Shown: piece after piece, positions 6,693 through 25,667 of the stretch
Position numbering within the stretch: the first letter of the stretch is position 1
Layout of the letters: each line of letters starts with the position of its first letter
Source of the DNA: Candidatus Brocadiia bacterium
Lineage (GTDB): Bacteria; Planctomycetota; Brocadiia; CAIUPP01
Assembly: GCA_050015075.1 (NCBI GenBank)
Contig: JBEKCB010000018.1
Span: 20,461-84,460, forward strand
Direction of reading: 5' to 3'
Length of the DNA stretch: 64,000 nucleotides
Position numbers and translations under genes: made by a program
The notes under the pieces: model-generated
The model's input: only the letters and a program-made list of their open reading frames with translations
Database searches by the model: none
Told to the model about the DNA's origin: nothing

Positions 6693-8387
6693 TTATCCGC
6701 GCTGACGTTCGCGGATGCGGATGAGGTCCTTCATCACGTGGTCGAGCTTGCCCGACCACTCGCGCGTGCCGAAGGCGTCGTGCAGCGTGCGGTAGAGCGG
6801 GTAGAGTTCGGCGTAGACCGCCTGCGCCTTCGGGTTCGGGCGGTAGAACTTGTCCTTCACGCCGCAGACGGCGCGCTGCGCCTCGGCCGCGTCCGCGAAC
6901 CCGCCGGCCTCTTTGCCGGCGGCGACCGCGCCGAAGATCGCCGCGCCGAGCGCGCAGGTCTGGTCGCTGCGCGAGACCTTCATCGGGCGGCCGGTGACGT
7001 CGGCGTAGATCTGCATCAGCAGCGGGTTCTTCGCCGCCAGGCCGCCGCAGTTGACGAACTCCTTCACCGGCACGCCGTACTCCTCGATGCGCTTGGCGAT
7101 CGTCAGCGCGCCGAACGCGGTCGCCTCGATCAGCGCGCGGTAAATCTCGTGCGCCTCGGTGTGCAGCGTCTGCCCGAGCAGCAGTCCGCTCAGGCGCACG
7201 TCCACCAGGATCGTGCGGTTGCCGTTGTTCCAGTCGAGCGCCAGCAGGCCGTGCTCGCCGGGCTTCTGCTTCGCGGCGAGCGCGCCAAGCGTCTTGAATT
7301 TCTCGTCCGTCGTCCGGCCGAAGCGCTCCGGCACGAGATGGGCGATGAACCAGAGGAAAATGTCGCCGACGGCGGACTGCCCGGCCTCGATGCCGTAGAA
7401 CCCGGGCAGGATCGAGCCGTCCACGATCCCGCAGACGCCGGGGATGTCGGCGAGCTTCTTCGCGTTGGGCATGACCATCATGTCGCAGGTGCTCGTGCCG
7501 AGGATTTTCACGAGCGTCCCTTCGCGGACGCCGGCGCCTACCGCGCCCATGTGCGCGTCGAACGCGCCGGCGGCGATCGCGATGCCCGGCTTCAGCCCGA
7601 GCTTCTTCGCCCATTCCGCCGAGAGTCGCCCCGCCGCGTGGTCAGCCGGCACCGCCTTCTCGTAGAGCCGCCGGCGCAGCGCGGCCAGAGCCGGGTCGAG
7701 CCCGCGCAGGAACTCCTCGTCCGGCAGGCCGCCCCATTCCGGGCAGTACATCGCCTTGTGGCCGGCGGCGCAGACGCCGCGGACGATTTGCTCCGGCCGC
7801 GTGTCGCCGGCGAGCAGCGCGGGCATCCAGTCGCAGTGCTCGACGAAGCTGTGCGCGGCGGCGAAGACCTTCGGCGCGGCGCGCTTGCAGCGCAGGGCCT
7901 TGCTCCAGAACCACTCCGAGGAATAAGTCCCGCCGCATTTGGCCAGGTACTGCGGCCGGATTTTCCGCGCGCGCGCGGTGATCTCCGCCGCCTCGGCGTG
8001 GCCGGTGTGGTCCTTCCAGAGCCAGGCCATCGCATCGAGGTTCCCCTTGAACTGCGGCAGCATGGCCAGCGGCGTGCCGTCGCGGTCCACCGGCATCGGC
8101 GTGCTGCCGGTGGTGTCAATGCCGATGCCGACGATCTGCGCCGGGTCGAACCGGCGGTCCGCCTTCTTCGCGCGGCGGATCGTCCGCGGCACAACGCCCA
8201 GCGCGGCGACGTAGTCCTGCGGATTCTGCCGCGCCAGGTTCGGCTCGCGCGGATCGAGCAGAATCCCCGCCGCGCCGGACGGAAAATCGAAGACGCAGCT
8301 TTCCACCTCGCGCCCGTCGGCCAGGTCCACGATCAGGCAGCGGCAGGAGTTCGTCCCGTAGTCGAGTCCCAACGCATATCTCTTCAT
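6693..8387 (-). CDS. araB: ribulokinase (FGGY carbohydrate kinase)
   Basis: Start at MKRYALGLDYGTNSCRC with a GGAGAG RBS. FGGY/AraB motifs run throughout. It lies upstream of araD on the same strand. Confidence 0.8.
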   Translation of the reverse strand: MKRYALGLDYGTNSCRCLIVDLADGREVESCVFDFPSGAAGILLDPREPNLARQNPQDYVAALGVVPRTIRRAKKADRRFDPAQIVGIGIDTTGSTPMPVDRDGTPLAMLPQFKGNLDAMAWLWKDHTGHAEAAEITARARKIRPQYLAKCGGTYSSEWFWSKALRCKRAAPKVFAAAHSFVEHCDWMPALLAGDTRPEQIVRGVCAAGHKAMYCPEWGGLPDEEFLRGLDPALAALRRRLYEKAVPADHAAGRLSAEWAKKLGLKPGIAIAAGAFDAHMGAVGAGVREGTLVKILGTSTCDMMVMPNAKKLADIPGVCGIVDGSILPGFYGIEAGQSAVGDIFLWFIAHLVPERFGRTTDEKFKTLGALAAKQKPGEHGLLALDWNNGNRTILVDVRLSGLLLGQTLHTEAHEIYRALIEATAFGALTIAKRIEEYGVPVKEFVNCGGLAAKNPLLMQIYADVTGRPMKVSRSDQTCALGAAIFGAVAAGKEAGGFADAAEAQRAVCGVKDKFYRPNPKAQAVYAELYPLYRTLHDAFGTREWSGKLDHVMKDLIRIRERQRG

Positions 8388-9451: not shown

Positions 9452-10336
9452 ATGATGCAGGCGGCGTGCGAGAAGCAGATCCTGATCCCGGCGTTCAACA
9501 TCGCCTACCTGCCGATGACGCGGCCGGTGGCGCGGACGCTCGAACGGCTCGGGACGTTCGGGCTGGCCGAGGTGGCGATGCCGGACGTGACGCGCTTCGG
9601 CGCGAAGAGTTTCGACGCGGTCGCCGCCGAGTACCGCAAGGAGGCGAACCCGGAGTTCGTGGCGCTCCACCTCGACCACGTGCCGGTGATTGACGAGGAA
9701 CACAAGCGCCTGGATTGGGAAGCGCTGATCCGCAAGGGACTGGATCTCCGGTTCGAGTCGGTGATGCTCGACGGCTCGCGCCTGCCGCTGGAGGAGAACA
9801 TCGCGGCGGTGCGTCAGGTCGTAGAGATGTGCCACCCCAGGGTCGCCGTCGAGGCGGAGCTCGGCGCGGTGCTCGGACACGAGGCCGGGCCGATCCCGCC
9901 GTACGAGGAACTCTTCCGGACGAAGAGAGGATTCACCGACCCGGACGAGGCGCGGCGGTTCGTGAAGGAGACCGGCGTGGACTGGCTCAGCGTGGCCGTC
10001 GGCAGCATCCACGGCGCGATCACCGGCGCGGGCAAGGACCAGGCGAAAGTCGCCGCACGGCTGCACAGCGAGCATCTGCGCACGCTCCGCAAGGCCACCG
10101 GCGTGCCGCTGGTGCTCCACGGCGGATCGGGCGTGCAGAAGGAATCCGTCCTTGAGGGCATCCGCAACGGCATCGCTAAGATCAATATCGGAACCGAGAT
10201 ACGACAGGCTTACGAGAAGCCGCTGGCCGCCGGCAAGGGCGAGAAGGCCGCGCAGGAGGCGGTCGCCGCGAAGGTCGAGGAACTCATCGTCGAGGTTTAC
10301 GGCATCGCCGGCTCGCGGGCGAAGCTGTGCGGATGA
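9452..10336 (+). CDS. class II fructose/tagatose-bisphosphate aldolase family protein
   Basis: Start MMQAACEKQILIPAFNIAY, with LHLDH and LHGGSG zinc-aldolase motifs. The upstream part of the ORF (from 9275) lies inside the repeat hairpin and is not coding. Confidence 0.75.
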   Translation: MMQAACEKQILIPAFNIAYLPMTRPVARTLERLGTFGLAEVAMPDVTRFGAKSFDAVAAEYRKEANPEFVALHLDHVPVIDEEHKRLDWEALIRKGLDLRFESVMLDGSRLPLEENIAAVRQVVEMCHPRVAVEAELGAVLGHEAGPIPPYEELFRTKRGFTDPDEARRFVKETGVDWLSVAVGSIHGAITGAGKDQAKVAARLHSEHLRTLRKATGVPLVLHGGSGVQKESVLEGIRNGIAKINIGTEIRQAYEKPLAAGKGEKAAQEAVAAKVEELIVEVYGIAGSRAKLCG

Positions 10337-10342
10337 ACTCCC

Positions 10343-10425
10343 AATCGTCCTCGTCCTCGCTCTCGTCCTCGTCCTCGAACGGTAGGTCATAACGGCCGAG
10401 GCGGAGGACGACGACGAGGACGATC
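10343..10425. repeat. GTC/GAC-rich hairpin (hairpin-only copy of the cassette; probable terminator between the aldolase gene and murJ)
   Basis: cgtcctcgtcctcgctctcgtcctcgtcctcgaacgg...ccgaggcggaggacgacgacgaggacg. Confidence 0.7.
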
Positions 10426-10446
10426 GAGGCGCAATCGGCGTTATAG

Positions 10447-12045
10447 ATGCCTGAAAAACACGACATTCTTCCCGGCATGCTCAAGACCGGCGCGGGGACA
10501 TTGGCCAGCCGGATTCTGGGGCTTCTGCGCGAGGTGTTCACCACGCGCTTTTTCGGCGCCGGCCCCGCGTTCGATATGTTCGTCATCGCCTTCCGCGTGC
10601 CGAACCTCTTTCGTGCGCTCTTCGGCGAGGGCGCGTTGAACGCGTCGTTCATCCCGGTCTTCACGCGCGAGGGGCTCGATCCGGCGGGCGATGCGCGGCG
10701 GCTGCTCAACGCCGTCATGACGGCGCTCGCCGCGCTGCTGATGGGCATCACCTGCCTGGGCTGGCTGATCTGCGGCATCGCCCTGCTCTCCGGCCGCCTG
10801 CCGCCCAACGGCAAGCTGTTCTGCCTGCTGCTGATGATCCTGCTGCCGTACCTTCCGCTCATCTGCCTCACCGCGCTGCAGGGCGCCGCGCTGAACGTGA
10901 AAGGGCATTTCCTCCGGCCCGCGTTCGCGCCGACGATCATGAACATCTGCTGGATCGGCGCGATTGTCCTGCTGCGGTTTTGGCACGTCAAGGACTTGAG
11001 CCTGGGCGCCACCGCGCTCGCGGTCGGAGTGCTGATTTCGGGCGGGCTCCAGTTCGCCTATCAGGCGATGATGCTGCGCCGCTGCAAGCTCCATTTTCGG
11101 CTGGTCTGGGACCTGGCGCATCCGGGCCTGCGGCAGATCGTTCACCTGACGCTCCCGGTGGCGCTGGGAGTGGGCGTCATCCAGGTCAACACGTTCGTGG
11201 ATTCGCTCTTTGCGCAGTTCTGCGTGCGGGATGCGGGCGCCAACAGCGCGCTGTGGTATGGCAACAACCTGATGCAATTTCCGCTGGGCGTGCTGGGTAC
11301 CGCGCTGGCGACGGCGGTGCTTCCGGCGCTGGCGCACCACGAGGCCGTGGGCGACCGCAAGTCGTTCGTGGACGCCATCGGCCTGTCGCTCCGGACGGCG
11401 TTCTTCGTCTCGCTTCCCTGCGTCGCCGCCACGGTCGCGCTCAGCGCGCCGATCGTGCGGGTGCTCTATGAGGGCGGGCGGTTTACGCCTGAATCCACGG
11501 CGCGGACGGCGGCGGTCTTCCTCTGTTTCACCGCGGGCCTGTGGGCGTTCTGCGCCATCCAGGTGCTGGCGCGCGCGTTCTACGCTCAGCAGGACGTGCG
11601 CGCGCCCAGGCGGATTGCGGTCATGATGGTCGGCGCAAACTTCGTCCTGAACGCGATTTTGGTCTGGCCGATGCGCGAGGCGGGACTGGCGCTGTCGAGC
11701 AGCATCTGCGGGGTCGGGAACATGGTGCTGCTGTGGATACACCTGAGAAAGAAGATCGGTCCGATCGGCGGGCGCGCTGTGGCGGCCAGCGCGGTGAAGT
11801 CCGCCGTCGCCGCCGCGATCGCAGGGCTCGCCGGGTACGGCGCATTTTACGGAACTCTGCGAGCGGCCGGCGGGCCGGCGATGACCTCGCCGCGGGCCTG
11901 GCCTCAACTCCTGGCGCTCTCGTGCGGCCTGGCCGCCGTGTGCGCGGTCTTCCTGCTGGCGGCGTGGGCGCTGCGCGCGACGGAACTGAGCGAGTTCCTC
12001 CAGTCCCTCCGCCGGAAGAAAGACCGGGCGCCTTCGGACGGCTGA
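10447..12045 (+). CDS. murJ: lipid II flippase MurJ/MviN
   Basis: 532 aa with 14 TM helices and a MurJ N-terminal signature (LASRILGLLREV...FGAGPAFDMFVIAFRVPNLFRALFGEGALNASFIPVF). Confidence 0.85.
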   Translation: MPEKHDILPGMLKTGAGTLASRILGLLREVFTTRFFGAGPAFDMFVIAFRVPNLFRALFGEGALNASFIPVFTREGLDPAGDARRLLNAVMTALAALLMGITCLGWLICGIALLSGRLPPNGKLFCLLLMILLPYLPLICLTALQGAALNVKGHFLRPAFAPTIMNICWIGAIVLLRFWHVKDLSLGATALAVGVLISGGLQFAYQAMMLRRCKLHFRLVWDLAHPGLRQIVHLTLPVALGVGVIQVNTFVDSLFAQFCVRDAGANSALWYGNNLMQFPLGVLGTALATAVLPALAHHEAVGDRKSFVDAIGLSLRTAFFVSLPCVAATVALSAPIVRVLYEGGRFTPESTARTAAVFLCFTAGLWAFCAIQVLARAFYAQQDVRAPRRIAVMMVGANFVLNAILVWPMREAGLALSSSICGVGNMVLLWIHLRKKIGPIGGRAVAASAVKSAVAAAIAGLAGYGAFYGTLRAAGGPAMTSPRAWPQLLALSCGLAAVCAVFLLAAWALRATELSEFLQSLRRKKDRAPSDG

Positions 12046-19041: not shown

Positions 19042-19164
19042 TGAATGATGAGCGGCGGGGAAAGCGGCGCTGGTCCGGCGCGGCACAGACGGCGTCAAAT
19101 ATGGTATGATGCGATCGGGAGGAGTTTCAGAGAACCTCCTCGCGGCGAGGCGAAAGGATCGAGA

Positions 19165-19545
19165 ATGGGCCTGACCAATGTGACGGCCGAGGTGGCGAAT
19201 CCGTTTGACTTGAAGCGGAAAAAGATGCTGACCTTTCTTGTGGATTCCGGGGCGGTCTACTCGGTGATCCCGTCTGCGCAACTCAAGGCGCTGGGCATTG
19301 CCAGCACCGGCCAGCGGACGTTCTTTCTCGCCAACGGGCAGCCTGTCAAGCGCCGCACGGGAGAAGCGCGCATCAAACTGAACGCGGACTCGGCCACCTG
19401 CGTGGTGCTCTTCGGCGAGAAAGGCGACAGCACTCTTCTCGGTGTGACCACGCTGGAGAACCTCGGGTTGATATTCGATCCCATCCGCCAGAAACTCATG
19501 TCTCTGCCGATGCTCATAGCCGATGTGCGGAGATACTTCCGCTGA
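19165..19545 (+). CDS. retropepsin-like aspartic protease family protein
   Basis: Start MGLTNVTAEV; catalytic-motif context LVDSGAVYSVIP (D-S-G-A). Confidence 0.55.
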   Translation: MGLTNVTAEVANPFDLKRKKMLTFLVDSGAVYSVIPSAQLKALGIASTGQRTFFLANGQPVKRRTGEARIKLNADSATCVVLFGEKGDSTLLGVTTLENLGLIFDPIRQKLMSLPMLIADVRRYFR

Positions 19546-20170: not shown

Positions 20171-20248
20171 GGCAAAACGAGCATTTCCCTTTCGTACAAT
20201 TCCTGGCACAGCAACGATTAATGATTCGCCCGCACAGCTAGCGGATTA

Positions 20249-21061
20249 TTACGTCGAAGAAGGGTTAGTTTCGATTTCCGTCTCTACTATCGCATCGGGT
20301 ATTCCAACCTTATCAATCCAATCACGAAGACGTGCGGCGTTCTCAGGCGTTAGCTCATTCCAGTCCTTGAGATGAACATGTAGGACGACAGACATAGCTA
20401 CCGCGTGTTTCTGCTGAACGCACACATCACCTTTCACTTGTGTTGCGACTGCCGCCATCTGTTCAATGTTTGGAGTGGGAGTTTGCGCCGGTACTTCAAC
20501 TTCATCGAGGTTCCCCTTTGTGAGCGTACCGGCGTCATCTGCCAACACTAGCCCGGTGTACAGGATGAAATCGATGAGTCGGTCCAAAGCGGATGAATCG
20601 CCCTCGGTCGCCCCCGCCTTGATTGCTAGTGATTTCTTCATCTCGGACCTGGACAACGAAGGACGCAAAGCAAAGTTCTGAACTACGACCTGTCCATACC
20701 AGCACCGAGCTACGAGCCTACGAAGATAAGATTTCGCCTTCTCCTCATCCCACGCCGCTTCGCGAGCAAACCGAACAGCCTCTTGGCTGGGAACATAATA
20801 CCCGTACTTGGGCGATACCAGAATCTGGGACTCCGACAAGAAATTGTTGTTGGCACTAACCGTAGACTGCCCCAAACCAGTAGCGCTTGCCACATCGCTG
20901 TACTTGACCGGAGACTCTCCGCCATTCGAGGCAACGACATAACCCTTTATTACTCTGACAAGTACGTCCGCTCCAGAAAGGGGAAGCGCTTTCTCTGCTG
21001 TAAGCTTCGGCAGTTTTGTCTTTATTTGTTGCTCGACTTTTTGTTCCTCATCTTTACTCAT
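20249..21061 (-). CDS. hypothetical protein with a predicted N-terminal (winged) HTH; last gene of the low-GC island operon
   Basis: 270 aa with an HTH-like YSDVASATGLGQSTVSANNNFL. The GC is much lower than the host genome. It overlaps the upstream NTPase gene by ATGA. Confidence 0.5.
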   Translation of the reverse strand: MSKDEEQKVEQQIKTKLPKLTAEKALPLSGADVLVRVIKGYVVASNGGESPVKYSDVASATGLGQSTVSANNNFLSESQILVSPKYGYYVPSQEAVRFAREAAWDEEKAKSYLRRLVARCWYGQVVVQNFALRPSLSRSEMKKSLAIKAGATEGDSSALDRLIDFILYTGLVLADDAGTLTKGNLDEVEVPAQTPTPNIEQMAAVATQVKGDVCVQQKHAVAMSVVLHVHLKDWNELTPENAARLRDWIDKVGIPDAIVETEIETNPSST

Positions 21062-22422
21062 GACGCGCCTCCAATCTTTAGGGCCAAGGCATAAAGGTAA
21101 GGAATCTCAAACGAATCAGATTGATTGACCGCCTTCCTGTCTTTTACGGCCACAGCACCAATCCTGACAAGATCGGATATGACCAACTTGGCGTCTAGAT
21201 CAGCCTTACCAAGAGCAGCAGATAGTTGCTTCCGGTTGAAAGTCCGCGAGTTGTGCCCGCTCAACTGTTTATATGTTTGGCTGTAGTTTGGAAAAACCTG
21301 AAGGAAATCGTTCAGCTTATCCGCAGCGGTAAGATCTATTGCCTGTCGAATTGCCTCAGCGGAAATCAAACACGTCGGCTTGTTTACACCCTGGCGGTTG
21401 AAAGTTAACTGCGATTTCTGAGCCTCGATGCAGAAATTTACAAAATCGCGCGGAAGTGCATCGCCATTTCCGTCCTTGAAGCGTTCATACAGCACTTCAA
21501 ACCCGCCCGCGTAAGGCTCTTCCCAATCGAAAACTTCATCGAGCCACTTTTGGGCAACGGGATAGATGATGTCGTCATTATGCTCTGGATGTAAGACAGC
21601 GAGACGGTGGGCGAGAAGAATCCCTATGTCCTCCTTAGTCCACTTCAAAGTCAATTTCAACGCGCTGAAATGGTCTTTGTTGACATAGCCGAGTTCGTCA
21701 TAAATGTCAGACCGGAAAAACAGCTTAAACTTCAATCTCCTGAGTCGTATCAAGTCGCTGACAGCCGTCATTAGGCTGCTGAGGAGCTCGGCGATTTCAT
21801 CTTCCTTACTGCCGTTCAGCCGGACCTCGTCCAGACTGTCGAGGCAAATCCACAAGTCTGCTCCTTGCTCATCCAACCATGAACTTGCCAGATGGATAAC
21901 CTGATCGCATTCCGTCATCGCAAGGGGTATCTTCGGCGGTATCTCTGTAGTCACATACTCACCGATCCCGACCTTGAACTTCAAAGTCCTCAACGACTGC
22001 CACGGCGTAGGAACTATCCCGACCAGTCCCCAACGCACTAAGAATCGCTCGAACGTCTTTCTTGTCGTCTCGGCCAGACGGTCTTCATTGATGAGAAGCC
22101 CCGCGATGAGTGACGCGATATGAAAACGCCATAACCCAACCTTCGATGATGAAACAGCCGGATGCAAAGTGGCCCAGTGTTGTTGAAGTTGCGGCTCTTC
22201 ACCGAGCCAAAGGTTCGGTTTCTTGAAAATCGGGATCTTGTCTTCCCACTCGCGCAACATTTGGTAAATGGCGCTTTTACCGGCGCCCTTTGCTCCGAGA
22301 ACGAGGTAAATCCTATCGGAGCATGTCAAATCAAAAGCAACCGACTTATAGAAATAGTGCTTCAGATTGGTATCATGCTGCGCAGCACCGAAGCCAAAAT
22401 CAATCTTTTCGAGTGCGTTCAT
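21058..22422 (-). CDS. P-loop NTPase with a NACHT-like Walker B motif (STAND-like ATPase), hypothetical
   Basis: 454 aa. Walker A LVLGAKGAGKSAIYQ at about residue 45; Walker B LWICLDSLDEV (hhhhD[GAS]hDE) at about residue 195. Low GC. ATGA overlaps with both neighbouring genes. Confidence 0.6.
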   Translation of the reverse strand: MNALEKIDFGFGAAQHDTNLKHYFYKSVAFDLTCSDRIYLVLGAKGAGKSAIYQMLREWEDKIPIFKKPNLWLGEEPQLQQHWATLHPAVSSSKVGLWRFHIASLIAGLLINEDRLAETTRKTFERFLVRWGLVGIVPTPWQSLRTLKFKVGIGEYVTTEIPPKIPLAMTECDQVIHLASSWLDEQGADLWICLDSLDEVRLNGSKEDEIAELLSSLMTAVSDLIRLRRLKFKLFFRSDIYDELGYVNKDHFSALKLTLKWTKEDIGILLAHRLAVLHPEHNDDIIYPVAQKWLDEVFDWEEPYAGGFEVLYERFKDGNGDALPRDFVNFCIEAQKSQLTFNRQGVNKPTCLISAEAIRQAIDLTAADKLNDFLQVFPNYSQTYKQLSGHNSRTFNRKQLSAALGKADLDAKLVISDLVRIGAVAVKDRKAVNQSDSFEIPYLYALALKIGGAS

Positions 22423-22634
22423 TGATGTTCAAGGCCATCCGCAGGGTAAACGCTTCTGACAAGACGTCCACGTAATACGTTGACCGTTCGCATCCGTTGC
22501 CTTGGAGTATACCAACGTGAGGCGTTTCGCGCCAGCACGCTGTGAGACCCTTTAGCCTCTCGTTTAACGGACCCGCCGACGCGAAGGAGCACAGCGCGAA
22601 CGTGACGTGTCTTGGCGGACGGCCAATCGCTCAT
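22419..22634 (-). CDS. hicA: HicA-like mRNA interferase toxin (putative)
   Basis: 71 aa, basic, with a GSH motif (KREAKGSHSVLAR). Translationally coupled downstream of the HicB-like gene. The assignment is tentative. Confidence 0.4.
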   Translation of the reverse strand: MSDWPSAKTRHVRAVLLRVGGSVKREAKGSHSVLARNASRWYTPRQRMRTVNVLRGRLVRSVYPADGLEHQ

Positions 22635-22831
22635 ACCGGCATCGCGAAAAGTTCGTCCAGTTCCGGAATCGCTTCACCGTGCTCCAGGCGGTCAGCGATG
22701 ACACGCAGAGCCAATGCCTCGGCTTTGCAAACCGCCTCTTTCCGGGTCTTGCCATACGCCATAACTCCCGGCAGATCCGGCACTTCGGCGATCCAGCGGC
22801 CATCCGTTTCGCGCTCGATTTCAATCTTCAT
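22631..22831 (-). CDS. hicB: HicB-like antitoxin (UPF0150 family)
   Basis: MKIEIERETDGRWIAEVPDLPGVMAYGKTRKEAVCKAEALALRVIADRLEHGE, typical of HicB/UPF0150. Confidence 0.6.
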   Translation of the reverse strand: MKIEIERETDGRWIAEVPDLPGVMAYGKTRKEAVCKAEALALRVIADRLEHGEAIPELDELFAMPV

Positions 22832-22890
22832 CCAGGTAGCCTCCGTCGCATACGATATCACACGCCTCCGAACTGAGCAAGTTTTTCCCG

Positions 22891-25227
22891 TCACTCTTGC
22901 GTGTAAATCACAATCCGGTCATGGATGAGCAGCACGATGTCGGGCTTGCCGCCGGTGACGGCGCCGATGGCGAACTCGCGCGGTTCCGACGAGGCCGCCG
23001 GCGCCGGACCCATGCGGCCGCCGACGAACGCCTTGGCTTCGAAGACCGGCCAGGCGAGCACGCGCTCGATGCGCGGCTCTTCTTTCCGCCACGTCAGCAG
23101 TTCCATCAACTGCTTCGTCCCCTCGGTGACGATGATCTGCGGCCGGCCGTCGCCGCGGAGGTCGCCGACCTCGACGTTCTCCAGCCGCCCGTTGCGCACC
23201 GGCGATTCGTACGAGGCGATCGAGCGCAGCGCCACGCGCGGCAGGCCCGGGCGCAGGATGTGGAAATCGTCCTGCCCGGCCAGGATGACGGCCGGCTTGC
23301 CGCTTCCATCCAGGTCCGCGACGTGCAGCCGCTCGAGGTTGACCGCGCCGGTCTGGAGTTTGTCCGCGACTTCGTACACGCCGGTCTTGTTCGCCCGGAG
23401 CACGGTCAGGCAATGGTTCGCCGCGTCCGCGAGGAGGATGTCCGTGGTCGAACTTCCGTTGAGCCGGACAGCGGAGGCCGCGACGATCTGGCTGGTCGGC
23501 GCCACGCCGTTGAACTGCTCGACGATCTCGATCCGGTCCTTGTCGTCGAGCCGCAGCGCGCGCGCGAAGCTCTTCGCGGCGACGAGGATCGTCGGCTTGC
23601 CGTCACCCTTGAGGTCGGCGATCGAGACGGCCCGCCGCGTGACGCCCTGCACGAGCCCCTTGCCGTAATCCGGCCCGCGCGAGACGTCAACGAATTGCGC
23701 GTCGGCCGTCTGCTTGAAGATGCGCATCTCCTGGTACGGCGTGAAGAGCAGGATGTCCGGCCGGCCGTCCTGGTTCGCGTCGGCCACGAGCAGGCCGTCG
23801 GGATCGGTGCGCGCGTCCTCGATCGGGATGCGCAGGGACTCGACGAAGGTCGCGCCCGGCCCGATGGTCAGCACGCGAATGGACTTGTCGCGTGCCTGGG
23901 AGGAGACGTAGAGGATCTCGCGTTTGCCGTCGGCGAAGAGGTCGGCGACGCACATGCAGGTCGGCTTGCCGACGATCGGCAGCGACCGCGGGAAGGTCAG
24001 GCGGCCCTGCGCGTCGAGGCGCATCAGGCCCAGCATCGGTTCATCGGGGCTGAGGACGAGCACCGCCGGGGCGCCGTCCACTTCGAGCACGGCGACGTCC
24101 GTCACTCCCTGCAGGCACGGGAAGGCCGCCTGCCGGTCCCACTGGCCGGACTGGTTCTGGCGGAAGAGTTCGATCTCGGCCGCGTCGGGGTCAGCGACGA
24201 CGATGTCCATCCGTCTCGGATCGGTCAACGGGCCGAAAGCGAGCGGGTGCGCGCGCCGCGAGCCGGTCCCGCGCAGCGCGTAACGCTCGAACGGCCCGTC
24301 GAGGAGCACGCCCGGATCCGCCGGCTCCGTGCCGACCTTGTAAACCACCAGCCGGCCCTGTGACCGCTCAATCGCGACCAGTTCGGTGCAGCCGTCCTTG
24401 TCGAGGTCGCCGAGGGCTACGCTGCTCATCGGCGGCGCCTTGCAGCGCACTTCGGGGCCGAGCCGCCCTTCGGCGTTCTGGAACCGGAAGCAGAACGGCG
24501 CGGCCTCGTCGCTGCAGAAGTAGAGCAGGTCCTTCCGGCCGTTGCCGTCGAAATCGGCGATGGCGATGCCGACGGCGCCCTCGGGCAGGCCCGATTCCTT
24601 GATCGGCGCTTCGAGCTGGCCGGCGGCGTTCTGGTGGAAGAAGTAGGTGCCGTCCGTGCCGAGGAGGACCAGGTCGTTCCGGCCGCTCTTGCGCAGGTCG
24701 CCGATCGCCAGGGCGTTCATCTGCGTGGAGCCGTCGGCGATGTCAAACGTCCGGCGCGGTCCCCATTGCCCGTTCTTGTCCTGGTAGACCACGACGAGTT
24801 CGCGCGGATCGCCGTAGTACGCCATGTCCGTCCGGCCGTCGCCGTTGAGGTCGCCAAGCTCCAGGCTGTAGACGTGCTTCTCGGTCAGATAGGGCCGGCT
24901 GTCGAACTGCGCGTCGTTGGGAACCTCGTTCGGCTCCGCGTCCGCCGGCTTCGCCGCCGGGGCCTTCGCAGCGCCGGCCGTTTTCGGGCGCTGCAGCAGG
25001 CACTCGATCCGCGCGCGCGCGTTGTTCACCACGACGATGTCGGTCAGCCCGTCGCCGTTGACGTCGGCGAGGCGCAGGTTGCTCGTGTCCCAGTCGAGCT
25101 TGTACATCTCCATACCGGAGAAGCCGAAAGATTCCGTCGCCGGCTTCGTTTCGCCGGACGCCGGCAATGAGAGCACGCCCAGGCATAACGCGGCGAAGAC
25201 CAGACGAATCACCGGTGGATTTCGCAT
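22891..25227 (-). CDS. secreted FG-GAP / VCBS repeat protein (integrin-alpha-like beta-propeller repeats)
   Basis: Signal peptide MRNPPVIRLVFAALCLGVLSLPASG, followed by many (N/D)xDGxxD(I/L)(V/L) FG-GAP repeats. Confidence 0.75.
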   Translation of the reverse strand: MRNPPVIRLVFAALCLGVLSLPASGETKPATESFGFSGMEMYKLDWDTSNLRLADVNGDGLTDIVVVNNARARIECLLQRPKTAGAAKAPAAKPADAEPNEVPNDAQFDSRPYLTEKHVYSLELGDLNGDGRTDMAYYGDPRELVVVYQDKNGQWGPRRTFDIADGSTQMNALAIGDLRKSGRNDLVLLGTDGTYFFHQNAAGQLEAPIKESGLPEGAVGIAIADFDGNGRKDLLYFCSDEAAPFCFRFQNAEGRLGPEVRCKAPPMSSVALGDLDKDGCTELVAIERSQGRLVVYKVGTEPADPGVLLDGPFERYALRGTGSRRAHPLAFGPLTDPRRMDIVVADPDAAEIELFRQNQSGQWDRQAAFPCLQGVTDVAVLEVDGAPAVLVLSPDEPMLGLMRLDAQGRLTFPRSLPIVGKPTCMCVADLFADGKREILYVSSQARDKSIRVLTIGPGATFVESLRIPIEDARTDPDGLLVADANQDGRPDILLFTPYQEMRIFKQTADAQFVDVSRGPDYGKGLVQGVTRRAVSIADLKGDGKPTILVAAKSFARALRLDDKDRIEIVEQFNGVAPTSQIVAASAVRLNGSSTTDILLADAANHCLTVLRANKTGVYEVADKLQTGAVNLERLHVADLDGSGKPAVILAGQDDFHILRPGLPRVALRSIASYESPVRNGRLENVEVGDLRGDGRPQIIVTEGTKQLMELLTWRKEEPRIERVLAWPVFEAKAFVGGRMGPAPAASSEPREFAIGAVTGGKPDIVLLIHDRIVIYTQE

Positions 25228-25667
25228 CGTTCCGCGCGCCTCCTCTATCACGAACTCAGGACGCCTGGATTCCCGCTTTCGCGGCAATGACGTAAGGTGT
25301 TTTCAGCACAGTGTTTGCTGCAAATTGGATTCGTTTTTTCAAATCGCATTTTCAGCTTCATATCCTTGCCTGCCAATAACTTACGGCATCTCGAGGCTTG
25401 GATTATACAATAAGTTTTCTGATATGTCAAGGGCCGCGCTGCTGTTTTAATGGTGCCATGCATACAGATTATAATCATAACAGATTATAGCTACGGTGCT
25501 TACGGCTTATCTCTCCGATAACAACGTTTCCGTTTTTCCGGTTTTCAGCCCTTCGGCCGTGAGAGGAGCCGAACGGGTCAGCGCCGAACGGCTGAAAACA
25601 ACCGACCAAGCATATTGCAGTCTAGCGGTTTTGCAAGAGGCGTTCAATGGGTGGCGGCCATCAATCC

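Follow-up and report, generated by a model that had tools for sequence, protein, structure and literature searches.

What does a P-loop ATPase do for its host when it has no recognisable effector or sensor domain of its own, and when its gene overlaps that of a protein of DNA-binding type? The question is raised by a locus of a Candidatus Brocadiia bacterium (assembly GCA_050015075.1, contig JBEKCB010000018.1), of which a stretch of 64,000 nucleotides (nt), here called the window, was analysed; coordinates are those of the window unless another contig is named. An ATPase of 454 amino acids (aa) encoded there had been read, in a first-pass annotation made from the letters alone, as possibly a minimal NACHT-type STAND nucleoside triphosphatase (NTPase) that passes its output to a downstream helix-turn-helix (HTH) protein. 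We find that it is a P-loop ATPase of the STAND/ORC-Cdc6 branch of the AAA+-like NTPases and that it belongs to an already curated family, so that the protein is not new in itself. What is new here is the obligate partner, an orphan tandem winged-helix protein, with whose gene the ATPase gene forms a mobile cassette of two; such a pairing is unrepresented in the libraries and the literature searched.

A curated ATPase family of the STAND/ORC-Cdc6 branch

That the open reading frame (ORF) of the ATPase, which begins with ATG, is a real gene under strong purifying selection is confirmed by more than 100 full-length homologues (45-86% identity), by the motif residues that are invariant among them (G43, K45, G46, G48, K49, S50, D195 and D198) and by pairwise ratios of nonsynonymous to synonymous substitution (dN/dS) of 0.07-0.13. 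In an alignment of 36 homologues the Walker A residues, D195, D198, R237, D239 and P324-R325 are all invariant, and the ATPase looks catalytically intact.

The protein is not an orphan. The NCBIfam model NF047389 ("P-loop ATPase, Sll1717 family", a subfamily model) matches it with 151.9 bits (E 2.9e-44; cut-off 75) and from end to end, residues 9-447 aligning with positions 1-453 of a profile of 454; the model also matches all 42 members of a diverse sample of the Sll1717 family, to which the motif and profile tallies given below refer. When 1.84 billion representative proteins were searched with its profile (E <=1e-3), the family came to 3,453 clusters at 50% identity, most of them of 490-500 aa and aligning end to end. 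With this family the window ATPase has in common its architecture and the residues G10, A14, Walker A, D195, D198, F235, R237, D239, W261 and P324-R325; it differs in lying on a divergent branch, at about 22-25% identity to the typical members of ~490-500 aa, in carrying Ser instead of Arg or Lys after the Walker B Asp, and in that its branch is the only one observed here with an obligate tandem winged-helix partner. A literature search for "Sll1717" found no paper. Some distant members are longer: P0256, P0263 and P0265 carry a second ORC/AAA_16-like ATPase (1070 aa), an N-terminal IF2_N module or a C-terminal S-adenosylmethionine (SAM) methyltransferase, and several others of 600-670 aa have extensions lacking a Pfam match. 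These longer proteins offered no informative fused effector, only such sporadic fusions (methyltransferase, second ATPase, IF2_N).

The AlphaFold2 (AF2) model of the ATPase is confident (predicted local distance difference test, pLDDT, 84.7; predicted template modelling score, pTM, 0.83). It runs, in order, through a strand, the P-loop and a helix, a second strand, a helical/hairpin insert of ~115 residues that spans E71-75 to E190-194, the Walker B strand, the sensor-1 strand, a fifth strand, the lid and a C-terminal winged-helix-like unit. The Walker A motif GAKGAGKS, read at first pass near residue 45, does lie at residues 43-50, and its K45, G46, G48 and K49 are invariant in the family sample. 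Ahead of it stand 42 residues with no recognisable effector, which hold a family-invariant motif (F9, G10 and A14, with Glu or Asp at 15 and 17); neither Pfam nor the predicted model reveals a repeat or sensor domain, and the N-terminal motif, nucleotide-binding domain (NBD), lid and winged helix cover all 454 aa with no additional domains. The earlier statement that effector and sensor are both missing thus holds.

Among known structures the highest similarity is to archaeal ATPase_2 proteins, with SSO1545 (PDB 2fna) as the closest homologue; this protein and PABY2304 (PDB 2qen) share 11-16% identity with the window ATPase. The structural match figures are 13.5 for BREX BrxC, 13.2 for Cdc6, 12.4-12.7 for TIR-NLR, CED-4 and NB-ARC proteins, 11-12 for TnsC and MuB, 11.4 for Avs5, 10.0 for Avs3, 9.9 for MalT and 9.6-9.7 for NLRP3 and NOD2. 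A Pfam scan of the query gives no significant match, and the ATPase_2 model (PF01637) does not match it. In the family sample the weak Pfam matches are to ORC-CDC6-like (27 members, confined to the P-loop neighbourhood), AAA_16 (13), AAA_22 (11), nSTAND1 (7), ATPase_2 (7, best E 0.0015, below the gathering threshold), NACHT (5) and KAP (none). Searched against PDB sequences, the single ATPase sequence found no match with phmmer and the family profile found the P-loop neighbourhoods of ABC proteins only, and a viral fold search in BFVD gave weak matches only (template modelling score, TM, <0.4).

It was the Walker B segment ICLDSLDEV (residues 192-200) that had suggested a NACHT protein, through its fit to the signature hhhhD[GAS]hDE. 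The observation itself stands, in that L-D-S-L-D-E is present in the window subfamily; its value as a sign of NACHT does not, since the family-wide segment reads W-h-h-h-D-[RK]-L-D-[EV], with D195 and D198 invariant, Arg or Lys at position 196 (+1) in 38 of the 42 and Glu at position 199 (+4) in 18. The residue after D195 is Ser, Arg or Lys, never Glu, and it is Ser in one sampled member, namely the query. Because of these counts the NACHT-like look is in part a coincidence of the window subfamily, and a "NACHT-type" Walker B pattern read from one sequence is not diagnostic. The Pfam NACHT model (PF05729) has no match in the query at E <=1 and matches five relatives below threshold (best E 0.0047), and NACHT structures rank below ATPase_2, BrxC, Cdc6, NB-ARC and TnsC as matches to the ATPase, so that profile, conserved signature and closest structural neighbour alike fail to support the NACHT assignment.

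The wider kinship is of two kinds. The STAND layout is present: behind the P-loop NBD come a helical and then a winged-helix domain. The STAND-like sensor-1 Arg that had been sought downstream of Walker B was found as R237, which stands at the end of strand E230-237 in all 42 members and is followed by the helical lid and the C-terminal winged helix. STAND-like too are the want of a Glu directly after the Walker B Asp and of a conserved arginine-finger candidate before strand 5 (the stretch from the sensor-1 strand to strand E256-258 holds no conserved Arg, and R226 varies across the family). The ORC/Cdc6-like traits are an insert that comes after strand 2 and a helical bundle with a winged HTH (wHTH) behind it, both hallmarks of the ORC/Cdc6-clade AAA+ proteins (PMC12839542), together with the invariant, sensor 2-like R325 that starts the lid helix. 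D317-G318 and P324-R325 stand five residues apart, and P324-R325 is a candidate for a GxP-type Pro, an AAA+ sensor-2-type Arg or both, as read from the sequence and the model. From the ORC/Cdc6 clade (including BREX BrxC, TnsC and MuB) the window ATPase differs in having no Glu directly after the Asp and no evident arginine finger; from the STAND NTPases (NACHT, NB-ARC, Avs) it differs in having neither an N-terminal effector nor a C-terminal repeat sensor (TPR, WD40, LRR), in staying below the threshold of all Pfam STAND models and in counting NACHT proteins among its weaker structural matches. The ATPase is not specifically NACHT, and it shows traits from both sides of the STAND/ORC divide.

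Three other P-loop classes were considered and rejected. A KAP identity is contradicted by the absence of a membrane insert (maximal 19-residue Kyte-Doolittle hydropathy 1.28) and of any KAP match in the 42 members at E <=0.1, and the ABC and RecA-like readings by the absence of an ABC signature and of a RecA-type core topology. These were the classes that the first-pass annotation had named as speaking against it; the ATPase lies in the STAND/ORC-Cdc6 assemblage, and to none of them was it found to belong.

A winged-helix partner and a mobile two-gene cassette

The gene that follows overlaps the end of the ATPase gene by 4 nt (ATGA). When 87 loci were analysed, this partner gene was found directly downstream in all 26 close-subfamily loci (>=36% identity) with downstream DNA, in which it is the sole conserved neighbour of the ATPase gene; the distant family members among the 87 (22-25% identity) are without the partner and without any other conserved neighbour. 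In 16 of 18 loci the two genes share 4-47 nt, and their pairwise identity matrices agree closely (mirror-tree r = 0.96, reached by 0 of 2000 permutations). In this subfamily the partner is obligate and co-evolves with the ATPase, and the genes are translationally coupled. The downstream HTH protein of the earlier annotation is therefore real, as a predicted tandem winged-helix protein strictly coupled to the ATPase gene.

The partner resembles the repressors HrcA, IclR, MarR and ArsR, and no model of Pfam, NCBIfam, PADLOC or PHROGs matches it. Its family comprises ~174 clusters, all annotated as hypothetical, and a deep profile search for remote relatives led back to the same narrow family only; its dN/dS is 0.08-0.15. 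Between the second winged-helix domain and the C-terminal element, the linker (residues 190-223) is variable and disordered (pLDDT <50), and it is followed in the model by a helix at residues 239-252. The conserved C-terminal element is a candidate docking peptide.

The cassette stands out from its surroundings in composition. The window has a patch of low guanine-plus-cytosine (GC) content at ~20200-22450 (0.45-0.55, versus 0.64-0.70 on both sides), of which the ATPase gene is the core, and in each of the 17 loci whose flanks were usable the cassette is poorer in GC than its surroundings. From one lineage to another the flanks show no relationship, and the hosts belong to Planctomycetota, Verrucomicrobiota, Acidobacteriota, Bacteroidota, Chloroflexota and LCP-89. 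Within the window lineage the order FG-GAP protein, hicB, hicA-like ORF, ATPase, partner and tag is kept where the ATPases are 86% identical. Because flanks and phyla differ between lineages while synteny holds within this one, the cassette is a self-contained, low-GC unit that has been both horizontally spread and stably retained. The window holds no flanking repeats that could be mobile-element ends, and no transfer RNA (tRNA) gene lies near the cassette; no conserved non-coding sequence was found upstream or downstream of it across lineages, and promoter and terminator scans gave results indistinguishable from shuffled sequence.

Two further loci may be mentioned in connection with mobility. 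A cassette 64% identical to that of the window (L010) lies on a 4.4-kb contig with a run of N that is assigned to a metagenome-assembled genome (MAG) of Bifidobacteriaceae, which could reflect cross-phylum transfer or a mis-binned contig. In L008, a contig of Verrucomicrobiota type, a direct repeat of ~590 nt (7253-7842 and 10173-10763; 93-96% identity) brackets the cassette. This repeat is the 3' part of groEL, beside groES, and it could stem from an integration that duplicated the 3' end of the target, from gain by recombination, or from an artefact of long-read assembly.

Neighbouring genes in the window and in related loci

The coordinates of the cassette, its motifs and the two ORFs before it are collected in table 1.

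Table 1. Features of the cassette and of the adjoining hic genes in the window.
Feature	Coordinates	Strand	Remarks
hicB-like antitoxin gene	22631..22894	-	first of a co-directional four-ORF string; Pfam HicB_lk_antitox E 8e-6; PHROG 497 HicB-like
hicA-like ORF, 71 aa	22419..22634	-	lineage-specific; weak Pfam HicA_toxin match (E 0.13); ATGA overlaps with hicB and the ATPase gene
Sll1717-family P-loop ATPase, 454 aa	21058..22422	-	NBD, helical lid and C-terminal winged helix; STAND/ORC-Cdc6-like fold
ATPase Walker A / P-loop, G43-A-K-G-A-G-K-S50	22273..22296	-	after strand E40-43 in the model
ATPase Walker B strand and acidic residues, W191-I-C-L-D195-S-L-D198-E199	21826..21852	-	strand E190-194 in the model
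ATPase sensor-1 strand, K233-L-F-F-R237-S-D239	21706..21726	-	F235, R237 and D239 invariant; strand E230-237 in the model
ATPase P324-R325	21448..21453	-	N-terminus of the long lid helix H324-344; invariant in 42/42
ATPase C-terminal winged-helix-like domain, residues ~378-447	21082..21291	-	
Partner protein, 270 aa	20249..21061	-	two winged-helix domains, disordered linker, short conserved C-terminal element; orphan family
Partner winged-helix domain 1, residues ~25-92	20786..20989	-	
Partner winged-helix domain 2, residues ~106-182	20516..20746	-	pLDDT >90; conserved columns
Partner C-terminal element, S-L-V-x-H228-x-H230 ... L-T-P-E-N-A242 ... W248	20306..20392	-	H228, H230, A242 and W248 invariant

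All four ORFs (hicB, the hicA-like ORF, the ATPase and the partner) are chained by ATGA overlaps. The hicB-like gene is found at this position also in L087 and L091, which are syntenic; in L087 as in the window the hicA-like ORF is open and still overlaps the ATPase start codon. Conservation and likeness to HicA are limited to its N-terminal ~40 residues; since its C-terminal part has diverged, it may be a degenerate toxin. Before this string, at 22891-25287 (-), lies the gene of a 798-aa FG-GAP/VCBS-repeat protein, whose repeats appear as five families (D1-D5) of direct DNA repeats of 38-59 nt; they belong to the coding sequence and do not form a regulatory array. On the other side, between a sigma-54 activator gene and tag, the window has at 19045-19545 (+) a gene for a 166-aa retropepsin-like aspartyl protease (gag-asp_proteas), in place of which L087 has a GNAT acetyltransferase; because the two syntenic loci differ there, this slot is a second variable spot beside the island.

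Elsewhere the cassette has mixed company. Toxin-antitoxin (TA), restriction-modification (RM) and mobile genes stand beside it as hicB/hicA in the window, a PIN pair (L097), a methylase fragment with UPF0175 (L090), ORF6N (L004), a transposase fragment with UvrD (L002) and MmeI-type pieces (L095 and the P0016 contig). The last two belong to independent lineages, and in both the cassette borders directly on fragments of RM genes of MmeI type (type IIG/IIL; L095 10200-11900, -; P0016 contig 6891-7922, +), one contig having MmeI_N and the helical domain only and the other the methylase/Eco57I part only, which hints that the cassette was inserted into or beside decaying RM genes. Two distant relatives of the ATPase are plasmid-borne, one beside AbiEi and one in a defence-type cluster. 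A distant member of the family in L099 (43502-58338 of the Nostoc plasmid pANSO36C) lies amid a HerA-like DUF87 protein with NurA, DUF3696, two HNH endonucleases, DUF262 and a RecD-like helicase. Two PHROG families are remote relatives of the ATPase family. In another branch, the distant relative P0108 (23% identity; L003, 269-3239) follows dprA and precedes a 117-aa ORF, and a similar small ORF follows the ATPase gene in L030 (9458-9859); it may be a different small partner in that branch.

Candidate roles of the cassette

The comparison that bears most directly on function is with DS-41 ("AAA2", WP_033812887.1), a 502-aa single-gene anti-phage system from DefensePredictor that protects Escherichia coli against several Bas (BASEL) phages and that its authors linked remotely to the STAND ATPase of Avs1B (PMC13092281). 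The DS-41 model, NCBIfam NF053860, is matched by 35 of the 42 Sll1717-family members (best E 1.9e-17), and hhalign of the ATPase family against the DS-41 sequence as printed in the supplement gives a probability of 94.5%, over the N-terminal motif and the P-loop only. DS-41 is similar in size to the proteins of the window ATPase family and has the N-terminal F..AE.E..Y motif and a like P-loop (GQRGAGKS); a Walker B of D-K-L-D-E and a lid motif S-P-R-E-L are likewise readable in its sequence. It works as a single gene, whereas the window ATPase has an obligate partner, and the latter is only a remote homologue. A second link is to PDC-M28C of PADLOC-DB, whose model is matched by all 42 family members (best E 6e-22) and by the query at E 2.7e-11, a partial match over residues 171-293 (Walker B to lid); the gene set of the cassette differs from that of PDC-M28C because the partner matches no PADLOC model, and a literature search for "PDC-M28" found no paper. 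On account of the kinship with DS-41 and of the mixed contexts, which include TA, RM and mobile genes and plasmid defence-type clusters, we favour a defence-type (anti-phage or anti-mobile-element) module, and consider that the cassette has about an even chance of being one.

If it is, the ATPase could act as a slow, nucleotide-controlled switch or as an oligomeriser; like slow switch-type NTPases, it lacks the canonical Glu that would come right after the Walker B Asp. The partner would serve as a DNA-binding adaptor that recognises DNA or anchors the complex to it, perhaps docked to the ATPase through its C-terminal peptide. As an enzymatic effector domain is missing from both proteins, the output would be DNA binding or occlusion, or the recruitment of another factor. 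One specific version, which we think unlikely, is an effector-less two-component immune or silencing system in which the ATP switch senses the invader and loads or locks the partner, via the C-terminal peptide, on foreign DNA, blocking replication or transcription without a nuclease. If true, this would be a loading mechanism distinct from the effector activation of Avs/NLR type, and it might also explain the protection given by DS-41.

Several observations weigh against a defence role. The query ATPase reaches 37.7 bits with NF053860, where the equivalog cut-off is 370, and its match is partial (residues 190-276); PDC-M28C is a candidate system only and is not validated; and the cassette has neither a nuclease nor any other effector. 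Ordinary housekeeping neighbourhoods make up about half of the sampled cassette contexts, a number similar to that of the TA, RM and mobile ones. A tblastn search with the ATPase found no match in sequenced phage genomes, nor did one with the partner in plasmids. Finally, the cassette is kept at a syntenic chromosomal site across lineages with 86%-identical ATPases, which would also fit a domesticated regulator.

This last point leads to the alternative of a split transcription regulator in the manner of the STAND proteins MalT, AfsR and IniR, with the ATPase as a ligand- or nucleotide-gated switch and the partner as the DNA-binding half that controls host genes. It is a doubtful explanation: the retention of the site, the strong purifying selection, the likeness of the partner to known repressors and the fact that SSO1545 also served as the template for IniR all speak for it, but the ATPase is without any domain for ligand sensing or of repeat type, each lineage has different, unrelated flanks (there is therefore no conserved target operon), no conserved upstream operator was found across lineages, and the low GC and the spread across phyla point to an accessory, mobile function. 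Quite unlikely is a relic or minimal maintenance module of a mobile element, in which a DNA-loading ATPase like ORC/Cdc6, DnaA or TnsC would be joined to a Rep-like initiator or target selector with two winged helices.

The reading from which the first-pass annotation set out, that of the core of a bacterial NLR stripped of effector and sensor and signalling to the HTH protein, has become very unlikely in the light of the failed NACHT profile, the rank of the NACHT structures, the family-wide Arg or Lys at +1 with its unconserved E199, and a resemblance of the invariant lid Pro-Arg to AAA+ sensor 2. Least credible of all appears an addiction pair of TA type, in which one protein would inhibit growth and the other neutralise it. 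The overlapping and co-inherited genes, the fusion of the operon with hicB/hicA in the window lineage and the abundance of TA genes in other cassette contexts could be so understood; against this, no known toxin fold resembles either protein, type II systems are generally made of smaller proteins, and distant family members occur alone, as does DS-41.

The Sll1717 family is large and is curated by name only, with DS-41 as its sole experimental anchor. To it the window subfamily adds a strictly co-inherited partner of DNA-binding type that is absent from all profile libraries searched, so that the possible mode of action of effector-less STAND/ORC-like ATPases can be approached through a tractable pair of proteins. 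The cassette is also a concrete candidate for a defence system in phyla that have been poorly studied, namely the Planctomycetota, the Verrucomicrobiota and the Acidobacteriota.

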